Positions 41,696 to 48,918 of a stretch of DNA of 64,000 nucleotides are shown piece after piece. The first letter of the stretch is position 1. Each line of letters opens with the position of its first letter. The stretch is from Microthyrium microscopicum (lineage: Eukaryota), in contig MU004242.1 in the NCBI GenBank assembly GCA_010405405.1, forward strand, positions 97,751 through 161,750, given 5' to 3'. The notes under the pieces were generated by a model, which ran no database searches, was not told where the DNA came from, and saw only the letters and a list, made by a program, of their open reading frames with translations. A program made the position numbers and the translations under genes.

Positions 41696-42856
41696 ATGAC
41701 TGCACCTTCTATACCAAACTTGAGCTCTTTGCTTCGAGGAAGAGGTAGAGGTCGTGGTAGAGGGAGAGGAAGAGGCTCAAGCTCAGGACCACCCGGTTTC
41801 AGAGATGACGATCCAATAGCACGCGACCGCATTGTACAACATACAGATCAAGATGCGGCAGGTTCGCGACTAAGTGCTGTAAACCTACAGTACTTAGACG
41901 ATCCATACGCACAGTTTTTCTATAAAGATGCCGCTCCCCCGCGACGGTTTCCCATTATTAATAGAGGTAAGTATCGCAGAGATCAACCAATACTACCCAC
42001 TAACACATCAGGAACATATGTCCGCACTGCCGCCCTTGATCAATTAATCGCCAGATTCCTCGCCTCCGACCCTTCAACTCTCCACCAGATCATCTCCCTC
42101 GGTGCTGGCACCGATACCCGGCCCTTCCGACTCCTGACACAGACTCCACGCCCAAATCTCATCTATCACGAGCTCGACTTCGCAACCAACACCACTTGCA
42201 AAATCAGCACCATCAAAGAAACCCCGTCCCTTCTCCGTGCTCTCACCACGCACATGGACGCAGATGCTCTCGTATTCGGCTCCAATGGCGCCTCAATAGA
42301 AAGCCCAATGTACAACGTCCATCCAATTGACCTCCGCACTATCACGCCAACCACCCTCCCAAACCTTCCCAATCTCGATCCAAGCGCACCAACCCTCGTC
42401 CTTTCTGAGTGCTGTCTCTGCTATCTCTCTCCCACCGACGGCTCAGCCATCTTGACCGCATTCACATCTCATCTCCTCGCCAGCGCACCAGTTGGCCTCA
42501 TTCTCTACGAGCCCGTGCATCCCAACGATGCGTTCGGACGAACCATGGTGTCCAACCTCGCGTCAAGAGGAATACATATGCAGACATTGCAGCAATACGA
42601 GGACATCAGCGCTCAAACAGCCCGTTTGCGTGCCGCAGGACTCGGAGAAGTGGTGGGTGGAGCAGATATTGAGTTTGCGTGGGAGCGGTGGGTGGATAAT
42701 GCGGAGAAGGATCGCGTTGGAAGGTGTGAGATGCTAGATGAGATTGAGGAGTGGGTACTGTTAGCCAGACATTATTGTGTGGTGTGGGGAGGTAGGGGAG
42801 ACGTGTTCAAGAGTGCTTGGGGAAGCGTGGAGGCGCAACAGGGGTTTGAGGTATGA
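41696..42856 (+). CDS. PPM1: Leucine carboxyl methyltransferase 1 (PP2A methyltransferase)
   Basis: VQHTDQDA..SRLSAV...YL.DPY, PIINRGTYVRT (after removing the in-frame intron 41967-42011), QIISLGAGTDTR, SECCLCYL, DAFGRTMVSNL, DEIEEW.LLARHY. Confidence 0.95.
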   Translation: MTAPSIPNLSSLLRGRGRGRGRGRGRGSSSGPPGFRDDDPIARDRIVQHTDQDAAGSRLSAVNLQYLDDPYAQFFYKDAAPPRRFPIINRGKYRRDQPILPTNTSGTYVRTAALDQLIARFLASDPSTLHQIISLGAGTDTRPFRLLTQTPRPNLIYHELDFATNTTCKISTIKETPSLLRALTTHMDADALVFGSNGASIESPMYNVHPIDLRTITPTTLPNLPNLDPSAPTLVLSECCLCYLSPTDGSAILTAFTSHLLASAPVGLILYEPVHPNDAFGRTMVSNLASRGIHMQTLQQYEDISAQTARLRAAGLGEVVGGADIEFAWERWVDNAEKDRVGRCEMLDEIEEWVLLARHYCVVWGGRGDVFKSAWGSVEAQQGFEV

Positions 42857-43438
42857 TCAGAGGACGGCAGACGATACGATACCCACGGGAAAAACTAGAC
42901 TTTGGGCGAGAATCACATACGTTACTCATGTGGCTGATTGGTTTATTATTCACCACATCGCTATACATGGACGAAAACAACTCATGAACAGATGAAATAC
43001 GGTGCTCTCGTCAGATCAGCGGCGACGTCCGATGCTGCGATCTCATGATGAAGTTACCTGGAACATCTTATGAACCATTCGTCTATTTCAACATACCTGC
43101 CCCAACAAATCACCGATGACTATGCGTGGTAAGGAGCGAGCATCGCACTGGAAAACTGCACTATTCTACTGCGCTAGGAAAGTGAAGGTATATAAACGAT
43201 TTGGTAAGATGCTTGGACCTGGGACCGAATGGTCTCTCAACCCGTGCATAACTTTGGTAAGCCATGACAACAGTGTTCAAGGCAACAGTACCTGATTCTC
43301 GTCGTGGCTCAAGGCCTTAGCATCAAAATTTGTACAGTCGATTTGAAGATCCTTTCCGCCAAAATCGTGGTCTCCATTACACTAGTCACCACACACAATA
43401 TAATCATTACCCAGATCTCATGGTCATTCTCAACAATA

Positions 43439-43769
43439 ATGTCAGCCTGTCTCCTGGGCACCATGCACAGTAACATGCAAAGGTAGAAGCGATGTTTGTA
43501 GCAAAAACTGCGCGAGGTAGAACTCCAGATCCAAGAAAGAGAGACACAGATCCAACAGAAAAGAGCACAGAAACTAGAGAGTAAGAACCTAATCGACCAG
43601 CTGGAAGCAGTGCTAAGGATCCGAGAGGACAAACATCTCCCCAGAACAAACAGCTGCTTGGGAAGGAAGAGCAAGATCGGGAGGGCTATGAGCGAGATGT
43701 CGAAAACAAGAATAAAGAATATGAATCTGCCTCGCTGAGAACGATGCTGGTGGGTGGTTATGGTCTTGA
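43439..43769 (+). pseudogene. Pseudogenised small coiled-coil gene (array member A)
   Basis: MSACLLGTMHSNMQR*KRCL*QKLREVELQIQERETQIQQ..., with TAG at 43484 and 43499 and frameshifts. Ends GGG TGG TTA TGG TCT TGA (GWLWS*), matching member B. Confidence 0.6.
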
Positions 43770-44062
43770 TGAAGTACCAATGAATGTTATCGAAGGAAAC
43801 CTAATAAGATAACAGACTTGACAGACATCCTACTACATATACAATGATCCAAATTTGGTACAGCATCCCGTAGTGATCCGACTTCACAGCCGGCAATGCA
43901 ACCATAAGTCCTACCGTGACCGACTCCCATATAAAAACACAGTTTCAACAATATTTCTCCACAAACAACTTCAAATCCAACACTAATCATCAACCCACAT
44001 CAACCGACAACACCTTACCATCTCTTCAAATTAAACATACTCATCATCCTCTCGACTACAAT

Positions 44063-44443
44063 ATGGCAGCAGCAATTCTGCTCTTGCAACAGGAACAACA
44101 ACTGCGGCGACACAAGTTCTCCGATGCAGAGCTTGATCAACTAGAGAAACAAATGCACAACCTAGGGAAAGAAATGCACATCCTAGGGAAAGAAATGCAC
44201 ATCCTAGGGAAAGAAATGCATATCCTAGGGAAAGAAATACACATCCTAGAGAAACAAACACACATCCTAGAGAAACAAACGCACATCCTAACGAACAAAG
44301 TAGTTGCTAAAGAGAAACAGCGTCAAGAGAAAGAAAAACAGGAAAGTGAGCGAGTTGAAGACAAAATTAGGCGCAAGGAAGAAGCTAGCAAATCCACATC
44401 ACTGAAGCCTACCTCGTGGGTCTCTGGGTGGTTTTGGGCTTAA
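44063..44443 (+). CDS. Small coiled-coil protein with expanded heptad minisatellite (array member B, 126 aa)
   Basis: ATG at 44063, TATAAAA at 43930, (LGKEMHI)-type repeat x7, C-terminus KSTSLKPTSWVSGWFWA. Confidence 0.65.
   Translation: MAAAILLLQQEQQLRRHKFSDAELDQLEKQMHNLGKEMHILGKEMHILGKEMHILGKEIHILEKQTHILEKQTHILTNKVVAKEKQRQEKEKQESERVEDKIRRKEEASKSTSLKPTSWVSGWFWA
44141..44287 (+). repeat. 21-bp coding minisatellite, 7 copies
   Basis: Consensus CTAG(G/A)GAAA(G/C)AAA(T/C)(G/A)CACATC; units start at 44141, 44162, 44183, 44204, 44225, 44246, 44267. Confidence 0.95.
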
Positions 44444-44683
44444 GAGGATACTATGGAAGATTATCTGCACACAGTCAAATAAGTCAACCATGTTTCTTAT
44501 CATGACTCAGCCATAAACCAAATCTTCGTTGGTATAAATTCTATCTCCCCTAAAAGCCTCATGTCTAAACTTAGCATCACATGATCGCCGATTCAAGCGA
44601 TAGTATTGACCTTTCGACCGGAACATACTCATCAACACTACTCTATCAAATACAATCTTAACAGCAGCCATGTTGATCACTCT

Positions 44684-45054
44684 ATGGCCGCTGCGGCTGT
44701 AGTCAACCTCAACGCCTCGCAACGTCAGCAGCAGCTTCAGATGATCAGAGCAAAGCTGCATGATCGGCATCACGAAAGTAAGAACATGAAGAATATGAGG
44801 CGTGGCAGCAAGACTGGCATAAGGAAAGGCAAAAACAGCATGAGATGGACATACAGCTATATGACCTGCGTATCCAAATCCGAAACGGCTCATAGATGTT
44901 AGAGAAACAAGCTGCCGAAAAGAAACAGCTCACTCGAACAGAGAAGCCGCAAGGCATCATGCCCGAGAAATATGTCGAACAGAAGAAAGAAGCAGATGGA
45001 CCTGCCTCACTAAAGCCAACTTAGCCAGGCTCTGGGTGGTTCTTGACCGGCTAG
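44684..45054 (+). pseudogene. Pseudogenised paralog of member B (array member C)
   Basis: MAAAAVVNLNASQRQQQLQ start, a frameshift near 44780, TAG at 44893 and 45022. Tail GPASLKPT*PGSGWFLTG* resembles member B at the DNA level. Confidence 0.65.
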
Positions 45055-45288
45055 GAAACGTCGAAAGTGTATTCTCCCGTCTATCAAAGCCTATAACGTC
45101 CCTCACGGTCTGTACCGTAACAGGTATCTGTTATGGTTAGCTCTAAAATCAACCATGGTTCTCATCGTGACTGGAGATGTAGCATAATTCTTTCAGCATA
45201 TCAATCCCCAAGCTTCCACACAACTCATCACAAGTCTAAGAAACATATCCATCAACCTGCCCATATCTACCCAATAACAACAAACACG

Positions 45289-45765
45289 ATGTCGCCCATC
45301 CTACCCTCTACAGAAAAACCCACCTACGAAGCCAGCATAGCCAGCATAACCAGCATAACCAGCATAACCAAAGAACAATGGGAGATGTCACAAGCCAAGA
45401 ATCGCCATAGGGACGTCAAAAGCCTCCAGCTAAAGTACGAAAGCGCAATGTTACAAATCTCAAGATATAACCTGAAATTGATGGTCGAAATAAGCCAGAT
45501 CGACGCTGAGCAATTCGCGCTACAACCCGAACTACAGACCGAGCTAAAACACAAGAAGCAACAAGTAGATTGCTTAGCGCAGAAAGTATCGCGGCTTGAA
45601 ACGCAAATTGGACAGCAGGCTCAGACTCGAAAGAAGGCAGAGAAATCACAGAAGATACAAGGACTAAGAAGAAGCACAAGAAGCAATTTTGGCATATCTA
45701 GACAGCAAGCTGAGCATCAAGCCGCAGATAGACGGCAGAGAAACCTCAGAAATACCGACAGTTAG
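45289..45765 (+). CDS. Small coiled-coil hypothetical protein (array member D)
   Basis: ATG at 45289 after a CA-rich leader, 9-bp repeat encoding SIASITSITSIT, Q/K/E-rich heptads. Confidence 0.5.
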   Translation: MSPILPSTEKPTYEASIASITSITSITKEQWEMSQAKNRHRDVKSLQLKYESAMLQISRYNLKLMVEISQIDAEQFALQPELQTELKHKKQQVDCLAQKVSRLETQIGQQAQTRKKAEKSQKIQGLRRSTRSNFGISRQQAEHQAADRRQRNLRNTDS

Positions 45766-46049
45766 GAAGAAGCATGATAAGAAACTTTGGGGGTAGGAAG
45801 TATCTCAGCGACCAAGGCGTAGCTACGGTCGTGGATGCCTAGGTACAAATGGTAGCTTTGGTACACCAGACTCTACAGTAGCTATAGTTATAACCAAACA
45901 CTGCAAAATATTCCACTAAGAATATAACTGTTCGGATATATGAATCCCAGACTACTTTTCCATCGTTTCATCGTTCTATCAACAGCCCACCCAGTATACA
46001 TTAACACATTATACAACCTACACTCATCTCCCGGGCATACAACACAGCA

Positions 46050-46289
46050 ATGTTACCATCCCCAGCTCACGTAGGCAAACGCATCGCCGGCACCATAGCC
46101 AGTATGCTATACACGACCGACCTTGCACTCCTCAAAGCCCAAGCACTGGGACTACAGCTCGAGTTTCTGCGAATTCTATGTTCAGCAGTCACAGATGCAG
46201 ATTACGTAGGATCAGCTATGGTACAACCAAGAGAAGCTACGAAATTTTTCAACACGATTTTTGGGTTTAAAGGAACTGAAAGAGCATGA
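46050..46289 (+). CDS. Short ORF paralogous to the N-terminus of member F (array member E, possibly truncated)
   Basis: AGTIASMLYTTDLALLKAQ aligns with ASALANIIYTTQQQILQTE of 46654..47151. Confidence 0.4.
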   Translation: MLPSPAHVGKRIAGTIASMLYTTDLALLKAQALGLQLEFLRILCSAVTDADYVGSAMVQPREATKFFNTIFGFKGTERA

Positions 46290-46653
46290 GATGTTTGAGA
46301 TGAGAGTTAGAGTAAGCTACAGATTCAGCTTTTCCTTGCTCAAGAGAGGTAGCATGGAAGTGATGAAGAAGTTAAGCTGATTCGGCTCTCTGCGTGGTTG
46401 AAGCTCAACTAAGAATATGGCCATACTCAACATCGGTACATTTTGTTAAATCAACTACGGTACTCACTCAATACCTTCAAACCGCTTCTTAAAAGGTTGA
46501 ATCCCCAAGAAAGCATTCTCATCAAACTCATTATTCCATCACTCCCTCCTCCAATCCCTGCAGAATCTTCAGCTCCTGATCCGCCAGATCCTTCGAACCA
46601 TCAGAGATCCCCCAAAAGCAGCACTCATCTCACATCTCACAACCCCATCCACA

Positions 46654-47151
46654 ATGTCAACAACCACAAACCCAGTCTCAATGACGACATCAGCGAGCGC
46701 TCTGGCGAATATAATCTACACAACTCAACAGCAAATTCTTCAAACCGAGCACTCCCTCCTAGCAGCCAGGCAAGAAGAACTAAAAGCCGAGATCACGCAA
46801 GCACAACTCCAGATCTCGCAAGCCCAACTAGAACAAGAGCAACTAGTAGTCGTCAACGACTTAGTGCAAACAGCAAGGCGGAACCTAGAAATTGAGAGCC
46901 AGAGACTAGACTATAAGAAAAGTCAGCTAGCAATCGAACAACGAGTACTATGCACTGTAAAGAACGAACTGGAGTCTGGAAGAAGATTGCTTGATGTGGA
47001 GAAGATACAGTTAGATATGAAGGAGTCCCAGCTACGGAAGAAAGAGTCGCAACTACGAGCGCGGGAGCAAAGACTGCAGGCTAAAGAAGAGATACAGGGG
47101 AGGAAAGAGGTACGCAGGGAGGTCGAGGGGGAATATTGGTCTGGGGGATGA
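46654..47151 (+). CDS. Small coiled-coil protein (array member F, 165 aa)
   Basis: Continuous heptads (QRLDYKKSQL, KESQLRKKESQLR). Ends YWSGG* followed in frame by WWAS*. Confidence 0.65.
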   Translation: MSTTTNPVSMTTSASALANIIYTTQQQILQTEHSLLAARQEELKAEITQAQLQISQAQLEQEQLVVVNDLVQTARRNLEIESQRLDYKKSQLAIEQRVLCTVKNELESGRRLLDVEKIQLDMKESQLRKKESQLRAREQRLQAKEEIQGRKEVRREVEGEYWSGG

Positions 47152-47246
47152 TGGTGGGCTTCGTGAATAGGATATGTATTTAACAAACACAACACGGTGA
47201 CATTGATGCATATTATATTTTCTAACTATTGTAGCATAATACAGCC

Positions 47247-48586
47247 CTACTCAAGCAAACTGGCCTGATTGGAATACAGCAAATCGACCACACTGCTCAG
47301 CTTATCAATCGTGTTGAGCGCCGCATCGAATCCTTGATCACGGCCTTGTTCTTCATACACGATCAAGCAGCCACTGCCTTGATCGAGCACACCCACAATG
47401 ACTTTGTCTAGGATCATCTGGCTCAGCTTGCGCTCCACCTGTTGCGTGTCGAGTCCAACCATCTTGGCTACATGGGCTAGCTCTACACGGGAGAATGGCT
47501 CAATGACCTTGATCAAGTTCTGTTCCAGCATGGCATCGTAGAGACGTCTGAGATGATTGGCGATGAAGCGGTCACTGCCTAGTTCGTAGCGATATGTGCC
47601 GAGCGCACGCTCATATTCTTCTAATGAGCGGTGCGTGTGAGCGTTGGCAACGGCTTTCATGGCGTCGAGACCGGTGCCGGCGTATTTGATGGCGTGTTTG
47701 GAAGCGAGGAGGTTCGTCACGTCATCGCCGAGATTGAGCATGATCTTGCAGAGCAGCATGTATTGGAAGGCACAGCTAGCTTTTGGTGCAGCATCTTGTG
47801 ATGCGTAACCTTCGAGCGCTTCGATGAAATAACTGAAGGCGGTGCCAAAGTCCTGGTCTTCGGCGTGAAGCATACCGGATTGCATGTCGAGACCAGCTTG
47901 AAGGAGAGGCGGCGTGTAGACGGATGCAGCGGAGGTTCGGGCAGATGTGAGAGCGGCGCGGCCTTTGGGGATGTTGCCGAGGGCATGATAGACGCGGGAT
48001 TCGAGGAGTTGGACCTCGACTAGGCGGAGCTTATCATCGAGACGCTTGAGCTCTTTGAGGAGGCCGTTGATGAGTGTGAGAGCTTCGTAGTATGATTGCT
48101 TAGACATATGGAGGCTGACGAGGCGGGTTTCGAGATCTTGGCGGAGGAAGCCACGGCGTGTTGAGATGGCCCATTCGATACATTGTTTGGTGGTTGTGAT
48201 TTGGATATCGGTGGTTTTGGGGATGGTGGTGAAGAGATCAAGGAGTTGTCGCACTATTTTAGAAAGTCAGCAATGCTAGCGGATGATAGTCATAGATATT
48301 ACAAACCTAGTTTGGCGGTCTTTGCCTTTGCGAGTGCTGATAGCGCATCGCGAGTCTGAAGAATCAACGTAGACAGCTCATCCGTCCTCCGTTGCTCAGC
48401 ATAAAGCTCTCCCAAGCTCACGAGAGCAACCTCAAGGTTCTTCAAAGCTGCCTCATTGGTTCCCGGTGGTTGTGTGAGGATTTCCTTGTAAACCTTCTCG
48501 GCCTTGGAGGGGTCCGACTTTTTGACCTTGTTGGCTTCTTGGAGCTTCGTAGCGTTTTCCGCAGGAGTGGCGGGAGTTGCGGCCAT
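47247..48586 (-). CDS. RPN6: 26S proteasome lid subunit Rpn6
   Basis: AKAKTAKLVRQLLD, LLKELKRLDDK, LLESRVYHAL, ALTSARTSA, DMQSG.LHAE, PCI domain LLEQNL-like ...VERKLSQMILD. Intron 48254-48306. Confidence 0.97.
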
Positions 48587-48918
48587 TGTCGAAGCTTTGC
48601 TGCTATTCTTCGTATTTGCAGAGTGATTCCAAAGGCAACAGGCTTTGTGTGATGGGATGGTGGAGGAGAGTTTTAGCTGATGGAGTGGTGATGCTTTGGA
48701 TGGTGTTGAGTTGTTGAGGGCAGTTGCAATGGAAGGCGGAAGGCAAGTGCGCGGCTGGTTCCTGCCTGATTTGATTGGTCGCACCTTCCCTGCTTCAGCC
48801 TCTTCTTCTTGGTACCTAGCAACTTCCTCTTTTGTCCCAACATCATTCTCTCTTTCTGATACTCCAACTACATCGCCATTGTCATACACCAAACTTACTC
48901 TCTCTCAAATCGCGCTTG

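Follow-up and report, generated by a model that had tools for sequence, protein, structure and literature searches.

Tandem gene families that are restricted to one taxon and evolve by birth and death are a well-known class of locus. The stretch described here is of that kind: in a window of 64,000 nt of Microthyrium microscopicum DNA (assembly GCA_010405405.1, contig MU004242.1, positions 97,751 to 161,750; all coordinates below count from the first nucleotide of this window), the 4 kb between a PPM1-type gene and RPN6 is occupied by an array of six co-oriented + strand units, here called A to F. The array belongs to no known family; in kind it is a taxonomically restricted birth-and-death tandem family, and it shares with other such families short genes of weak expression that lack homologues, a mixture of intact and decayed neighbours, and a promoter-like region for each copy. 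Unlike in the usual families of this sort, the spacers of the array are more recognisable than its coding sequences, and the coding sequences are built of heptad-length repeats.

The nearest analogy that we can name is that of the codfish antifreeze glycoprotein genes (PMC5850335), whose coding sequence reportedly came from the expansion of a short repeat, followed by tandem duplication of the gene. By our reading of both cases, a short in-frame repeat dominates the coding sequence and the gene copies were multiplied locally. The antifreeze genes differ in product and in selective setting, the repeat of the array being 21 nt long, helix-encoding and without evidence of a selected function.

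We read the locus as a lineage-restricted birth-and-death tandem array of orphan genes in which six diverged copies of one unit can still be followed, and we give this reading a probability of about 0.6. The gene unit would be some 0.5–0.75 kb long: a spacer element comes first, followed by a TATA-like box and by a 5' leader with the motif ACTCATC, and a small open reading frame (ORF) completes it. The ancestral product, whole only in B, would have had a short N-terminal helix, a long helix of ~90 residues and a 14-residue Trp-rich tail.

Shared upstream elements

The units, given with the size of their products in amino acids (aa), are the following:

43439-43772, + strand: unit A, pseudogene with two in-frame stops and two frame changes
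44063-44443, + strand: unit B, intact, 126 aa, the only copy with the full layout; tail SLKPTSWVSGWFWA
44684-45054, + strand: unit C, pseudogene with a frame change near 44780-44784, TAG at 44893 and TAG at 45022
45289-45765, + strand: unit D, open, ORF of 158 aa; helix 13-24 and helix 28-155 predicted
46050-46289, + strand: unit E, open, ORF of 79 aa; FWV-stop remnant in another frame at 46259
46654-47151 (to 47166 with the tail), + strand: unit F, ORF of 165 aa, ending EYWSGG-TGA (47149-47151)-WWAS-TGA

The elements found in front of them are these:

43189-43197, + strand: TATA-like box upstream of A, TATATAAAC, read directly; it lies inside the RNA contig that is continuous with PPM1
43895-43921, + strand: spacer element (repeat family D3), weakest copy, 67% to the reference copy
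43930-43937, + strand: TATA-like box of B, TATAAAAA, read directly
44481-44507, + strand: spacer element, reference copy, overlapping TGACTCA at 44503-44509
44533-44539, + strand: TATA-like box of C, TATAAAT, read directly
45146-45172, + strand: spacer element upstream of D, 85% to the reference copy
46448-46466, + strand: spacer element upstream of F, 19 nt with 3 mismatches
45203-45212 and 46500-46509, + strand: exact 10-mer AATCCCCAAG, its only two exact matches in the window
44039-44045 (24 nt before the ATG of B), 44627, 45223, 46022 and 46623, + strand: 7-mer ACTCATC, preceding B, C, D, E and F

A first inspection of the letters alone (the sequence-only reading) had proposed six tandem units, with quoted tails and with TATA boxes in front of the first three; all of these were found at their places, the boxes starting at 43189, 43930 and 44533. 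The evidence that ties the units together lies mostly between them. A 27-nt spacer element recurs 38–160 nt past the ends of A, B, C and E, and when a 19-mer from it was searched with up to 3 mismatches, the whole window gave matches only at 44481, 45146 and 46448, against 0.10 expected. Whole spacers were similar as well (A_B versus B_C, z 3.2, p 0.024; B_C versus C_D, z 6.0, p 0.002), and the two copies of AATCCCCAAG follow the spacer element at matching distances of 57 and 52 nt. The heptanucleotide ACTCATC is found within 70 nt upstream of all five ATGs from B to F, which accounts for 5 of the 14 matches that it has in 64 kb. No other 7-mer is common to the five 70-nt upstream regions, and a shared 7-mer of any kind appeared in 0 of 1000 shuffles. 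In the D–E spacer only ACTCATC and a weak match to the element were found.

By these sequence comparisons the cassettes before B, C, D and F are homologous, and E is tied in only by ACTCATC, the weak element match and a tail-DNA match to B that is given below. A single ancestral cassette is the most likely origin of all six units, and the support for it comes from the collinear spacer elements, not from the coding sequences. The proposed family of six holds when judged by its spacers, and shrinks to A, B and C when judged by the similarity of the products.

Adjacent, co-oriented and partly broken units might also be expected if they were fragments of one larger degraded gene or of a transposon. 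We find this hardly credible, since from unit to unit the same succession recurs, with a spacer element first, then the TATA-like box, the leader motif, the ATG and finally a stop. No transposase or any other domain was found in the array, and the only inverted repeats found were four short, imperfect ones (14–20 nt, 75–93% complementary), none of which flanks it. Further copies were sought with nhmmer profiles built from A, B and C and by other comparisons, and none was found elsewhere in the 64-kb window. The indices of repeat-induced point mutation (RIP) are also normal: TpA/ApT is 0.81 and (CpA+TpG)/(ApC+GpT) 1.32 in the array, against 0.68 and 1.32 in the whole window, and RIP is indicated by a TpA/ApT above ~0.89 together with a (CpA+TpG)/(ApC+GpT) below ~1.03. 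RIP was accordingly rejected as the source of the stops, the array being without its signature.

As a side observation, a perfect TGACTCA, the AP-1/Gcn4-type site, is present at 44503-44509 in the spacer element that follows B; the elements that follow A and C have only degenerate versions of it (GTGACCGA and GTGACTGG).

Relationships among the coding parts

Pairwise protein scores were tested against 500 shuffles and tail DNA (the last 100 nt) against 1000 shuffles. A, B and C are clear paralogues, both as proteins (B–C z 12.1, A–B z 5.7, A–C z 2.9) and in the DNA of the tail (A–B p 0.003, B–C p 0.001, A–C p 0.027). The tail SLKPT..GW[FL]W is common to the three and is the best-conserved coding segment among them, with TGGGTGGTT invariant in the three-way DNA alignment. 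Four related aromatic tails had been proposed, including that of F. The relationship stands for A, B and C, whose tails are more alike than shuffled sequences are; the match of the tail of F is not significant against shuffles (B–F p 0.08, A–F p 0.07). Tail DNA of B and E gave p 0.005, in one of 15 tests. A likeness between E and F over A-x-(ML/II)-YTT, also proposed, is present and marginal (z 3.1, p 0.014). The B–F protein score was 57 forward and 72 with one sequence reversed. Taken alone, the coding sequences as aligned are a three-member family beside three unrelated small ORFs.

A trace of the tail may extend beyond the three. A post-hoc count of the pattern [FLW]W followed by 0–2 residues and a stop gave 7 occurrences for the + strand of the array, against ~2 expected from the rate in the window. 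All but one of them mark 3' ends of units: those of A, B, E and F once each, and that of D twice, since a 98-nt duplication there holds it in both copies. The remnants of D and E are in a frame other than that of the ORF.

The individual units are built as follows. In A, the stops are at 43484 and 43499 and the frame changes near 43637-43641 and 43744-43745, and the tail GGWLWS-stop sits in a third frame; 2.2 copies of a 21-nt repeat lie at 43526-43571. B is the only one of the six units with helix and tail in one frame, and it has a 21-nt repeat of its own:

44141-44290, + strand: 21-nt tandem repeat of unit B, 7.1 copies, 92% matches, in frame, encoding LGKEMHI heptads

Its autocorrelation at lag 21 is marked (z 10.3), as are the lag-7 identities of the protein (45 versus 8.7). 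In C, the TAG at 45022 directly precedes the tail PGSGWFLTG-stop; in F, too, the tail is preceded by a stop. The breakage of A and C by stops and frameshifts that had been claimed could be located in both. The only minus-strand ORF of the array with at least 75 aa, one of 128 aa at 44507-44893, lies antisense to pseudogene C; neither this nor a 67-aa minus-strand ORF matched a Pfam family.

D lacks a heptad repeat. It carries the 98-nt duplication (45629-45692 and 45727-45790), which changes the frame, and an in-frame 9-nt repeat of 4.3 copies at 45332-45370. We note in passing that the product of this 9-nt repeat is a series of (S/A)I(A/T) triplets within the short N-terminal helix, and that E and F have a related-looking motif (A-x-hydrophobic-hydrophobic-Y-T-T) in the same relative place. 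E, with only 18% Q/E/K/R, is also without heptad repeat. F consists of degenerate 7-residue repeats throughout (lag-7 identities 35 versus 12.4±3.4; lag-21 DNA z 7.1), with about two copies of its own 21-nt unit, which differ from those of A and B. Every tandem repeat inside the ORFs has a period that is a multiple of 3 (21 and 9 nt).

The helix-coding part is made of 21-nt (7-codon) repeats, and we propose that in-frame slippage and unequal exchange remodel it quickly. Slippage at such a pace would have carried the coding sequences past recognition while the short spacer elements were still readable, and our conclusion is that remodelling has left D, E and F with unrecognisable coding parts. 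Copies would be lost about as fast as they are made, as young and weakly constrained genes with a small or no effect on fitness. Fast turnover, which the sequence-only reading had suggested, is borne out by the broken A and C, by the frame-changing duplication of D and by the out-of-frame FW-stop remnants of D and E. A more specific history can be offered tentatively, in which an A-rich transcribed stretch between two housekeeping genes gained a 21-nt minisatellite whose repeat unit by chance encodes one helical heptad, slippage turned it into ORFs for long helices, and the promoter-plus-ORF cassette was duplicated six times. Equally tentatively, the gain, remodelling and loss of copies in such a nursery of genes might outpace the divergence of their promoters.

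Predicted proteins

B and D were modelled as monomers by AlphaFold2 on single sequences. The model of B has a helix at 2-16 and a long one at 21-111, with predicted local distance difference test scores (pLDDT) mostly above 90 (mean 87.2) and an unstructured tail at ~60, and that of D has the same two-helix layout, with helices at 13-24 and 28-155. F is present in the ESM Atlas with a model of its own (pLDDT 0.76), whose nearest models are long-helix proteins. A long single helix is thus supported by the models for B and D, and its pairing into a coiled coil is possible, the monomer models giving single helices only. The single helices predicted for B and D fit the earlier description of the products as rod-like. 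With regard to a classical coiled coil, the 7-residue sequence repeats of B and F are strong, and hydrophobic periodicity at 3.5 residues was not significant against shuffles in B (p 0.197), D (0.078), E (0.443) or F (0.126). The phrase “mostly Q/E/K-rich heptads” describes B and F and fails for D and E.

With coiled-coil proteins and ER/K helices the products have in common one long uninterrupted predicted helix and, in B and F, a locally high content of E+K+R (0.57–0.68 in the best 28-residue windows, at residues ~83-110 of B and in the C-terminal part of F). Unlike in those, overall E+K+R is only 25–32% (whole-protein values 0.14–0.32), opposite-charge pairs at i/i+4 are not enriched (B 10 versus 7.2±2.2, F 9 versus 7.1±2.3) and the a/d periodicity is not significant. 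An ER/K single alpha-helix domain was rejected on the low overall E+K+R and the charge pairs. A tail-anchored membrane protein was rejected too, there being no C-terminal apolar segment of ~20 residues (SWVSGWFWA has 9). The sole apolar run of at least 6 residues in the units is MAAAILLL, residues 1-8 of B, which is modelled within helix 2-16; D, E and F have none.

We infer that B, D and F are the copies most likely translated, and that B is the best candidate for a working protein, as a helical rod of ~90 residues with an aromatic tip. If B acts at all, the helix would probably serve as a rod that presents the aromatic tail. From here one could go on to suppose, along the lines of the sequence-only reading, that the units are working rod proteins, whose coiled coils bundle the Trp-rich tails at one end so that they bind a membrane interface or a hydrophobic surface. 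The best-conserved coding segment of A, B and C is indeed the tail, long helices are predicted with pLDDT above 90 in the models of B and D, and by our own reading of the sequence the MHILGKE repeat of B can put M and L at core positions. Yet helix and tail are in one frame in 1 of 6 units only, the tail, modelled at a pLDDT of ~60, could not span a membrane with its ~9 apolar or aromatic residues, and the 3.5-residue periodicity is not significant, all of which makes this supposition distinctly unlikely. A merely conditional addition of the Trp tail, by read-through of the stop that precedes it in C and F, seems to us scarcely probable.

Coding capacity and RNA

Three + strand ORFs of at least 120 aa are found in the stretch, and 0 of 1000 dinucleotide shuffles reached three. 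In B, D, E and F the frame of the ORF is preferred by 0.047–0.118 per codon under a codon model for which 15 other ORFs of the window were the training set, values that lie inside the training range of 0.014–0.169. Identity among A, B and C by codon position follows the order 2 > 1 > 3, with values in the 3' part of 0.53/0.61/0.43 for B–C and 0.51/0.67/0.46 for B–A. The protein of D is present in NCBI/UniRef as an exact match and singleton cluster, and the ESM Atlas has sequences identical to B and to F, which shows only that gene callers accepted them.

RNA was represented by unstranded contigs of one public run, which is not on record as RNA and behaves as such, since introns of the flanking genes are skipped; depths cannot rank expression and the contigs cannot show transcript starts. 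The short GT..AG introns spliced out in these contigs also indicate that the host of the window is fungal. Contigs cover A (43313-43845, depth 25.2), the leader and start of B (43966-44188, depth 4.8, beginning 36 nt past the TATA box), part of the 3' half of D (depth ~2) and E (46058-46304, depth 5.8). A lack of transcription, which the sequence-only reading had named as a ground for refutation, is thus not what the contigs show. Cover is absent over C and the 5' half of D, and this is no evidence on their expression. Flanking contigs are far deeper (PPM1 233, RPN6 611). The PPM1 contig runs 400 nt past the stop, to 43257, through the TATA box of A, and is linked to the contig of A by an intron:

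43256-43312, + strand: 57-nt intron, GT..AG, joint 43255->43313, depth 53.3, linking the PPM1-continuous contig and that of unit A

This is the only strand marker inside the array and indicates + strand spliced RNA across pseudogene A; the intron belongs either to A's own leader or to a long 3' untranslated region (UTR) of PPM1. At the other end, the RPN6 contig (47247-48628) extends over 46700-47247, 547 nt past the RPN6 stop and across most of F. F and RPN6 are convergent with 80–95 nt between their stops, and their transcripts must overlap if both are made; the cover over F may be RPN6 3' UTR, F mRNA or both merged.

The RNA contigs bear on a further alternative, in which the array would be non-coding, consisting of duplicated promoter/UTR cassettes and an A-rich minisatellite transcribed within the neighbours' long UTRs or as long non-coding RNA, with the ORFs as by-products. 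It would account for spacer elements that are better kept than the coding parts, for a 3' TTTTGGG-type element that persists in D and E whatever the frame of the ORF, and for contigs over A and F that are continuous with PPM1 and RPN6. Moreover, the + strand at 43–47 kb is A-rich and T-poor (AT skew 0.20–0.31), and a T-poor strand lengthens ORFs. We nevertheless consider it unlikely: the three long ORFs are not reproduced by shuffling, the tandem repeats inside ORFs are all in multiples of 3, the codon model and the codon-position pattern favour the ORF frame, and scans of the array gave no Rfam family and no tRNA.

Searches for relatives

No homologue of the family was found in collections of 5.8 billion and 1.84 billion proteins, in Pfam, in PDB or in 80 environmental RPN6 loci. 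Of 49 candidates for B and 127 for F not one scored, and D recovered only itself among 8. An exhaustive phmmer search with B returned 85 proteins, the best stretch of every one lying inside query residues 7-113, i.e., in the helix part; these matches were rejected as homologues, the 10 of 85 inspected being unrelated ORFs with 7-residue repeats, none of which extended beyond residue 113. In Pfam, B, D, E and F had no match above the gathering threshold (the best of B, to V_ATPase_I, reached 15.6 bits with a cut-off of 30.7). In PDB, F had 0 matches and B four weak ones (E 0.057–0.51), which include designed coiled coils (E 0.057–0.17). ESM Atlas feature scores gave a best value of 0.79 for F, within noise, and none for B, and the structure matches were generic long helices. 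Nor did the titles listed in the literature on the species, or on de novo, orphan, coiled-coil or tandem fungal genes, yield a description of such a family.

The synteny sample comprised 80 environmental fungal RPN6 loci with 80–87% identity, about 1 Mb in total, many with 10 kb on each side. None had PPM1 at E 1e-10 or better in the DNA covered, no other ORF from 34–58 kb of the window was found in them besides RPN6 itself, and for family members they gave only chance-level tblastn and nhmmer rows (E 0.32–0.82). Gene order around RPN6 is not conserved at 80–87% protein identity, and the comparison is therefore silent on the age of the array and on whether PPM1 and RPN6 were once adjacent. The claim that the family is lineage-specific holds up within the collections searched, B, D and F being without relatives and Pfam, PDB and the RPN6 loci negative, and a restriction to the lineage is supported by these sequence searches as far as the collections reach. 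The family may have arisen de novo or from an older gene that is no longer recognisable.

Small species-restricted ORFs of no known family also include the spore-killer genes rfk-1 of Neurospora and SKC1 of Fusarium. The array resembles them in its small, restricted ORFs, a resemblance without sequence similarity, and to our knowledge neither gene is known as a six-copy array of helix proteins. A locus of genetic conflict (spore killing, allorecognition or interaction with a host), an idea raised in the sequence-only reading, with turnover as the mark of an arms race, would fit the general pattern of small, lineage-specific, tandem and partly broken genes, and that pattern only. We take it to be very improbable, as the units have no known domain and, beyond the first eight residues of B, lack apolar runs of at least 6.

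Weighing the single-array interpretation

Several observations weigh against six diverged copies of one unit. All 12 protein pairs with D, E or F score z 3.1 or less, like reversed-sequence controls, and the nhmmer profiles from A, B and C match only A, B and C in the window and none of D, E and F. The shared spacers could thus be a promoter cassette reused before unrelated ORFs, an explanation that the coding regions of D, E and F favour by their lack of demonstrable homology to A–C. About one ORF of at least 75 aa is expected by chance, which leaves the 79 aa of E within chance. The codon-position pattern is weak and may stem from composition alone. The transcribed strand is legible only at the intron near A, and the covers over A (continuous with PPM1) and over F (continuous with RPN6) may both be the UTRs of the neighbours. 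Finally, the basis for calling the family lineage-restricted and the array purely local is formed by protein collections and one 64-kb window.

Flanking genes

The array lies in a block of housekeeping genes in the order Rpb5 (- strand), the PPM1-type leucine carboxyl methyltransferase (LCM) gene (+ strand), the 4-kb array, RPN6 (- strand) and a COQ9_N match, the last being weak and below threshold (21.7 bits with a cut-off of 27). The features adjoining the array are:

41696-42856, + strand: left flank, PPM1-type leucine carboxyl methyltransferase (Pfam PF04072 LCM, E 2.8e-22)
41965-42009, + strand: PPM1 intron of 45 nt (RNA joint 41964->42010, GT..AG ends)
47247-48586, - strand: right flank, RPN6, convergent with F (Pfam PCI, E 1.5e-21; RPN6_C_helix, E 6.9e-09)
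48254-48306, - strand: RPN6 intron of 53 nt (RNA joint 48253->48307)

The RNA contig departs from the window at one nucleotide, a G>T difference at 48588, which is in the 5' exon region of RPN6 and 41 nt from the end of the contig.

Implications

The locus opens no long-standing question and no function can be claimed for it. Its notable feature is a coding sequence built from a heptad-length minisatellite, beside spacers that outlast the ORFs. It also carries a warning for annotation, as D (accepted by gene callers in NCBI/UniRef) and B and F (in the ESM Atlas) have pseudogenes of their own family as neighbours. If our interpretation is right, the array would illustrate a simple route to new folded proteins: the 21-nt repeat supplies the heptad, slippage extends it into a long helix, and a family results when the cassette is duplicated. 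Because copies that are intact, remodelled or dead lie next to one another, these steps can be compared within one genome. Should the more specific minisatellite history also apply, the array would be a case, caught in the act, of repeat expansion yielding new proteins that can fold.

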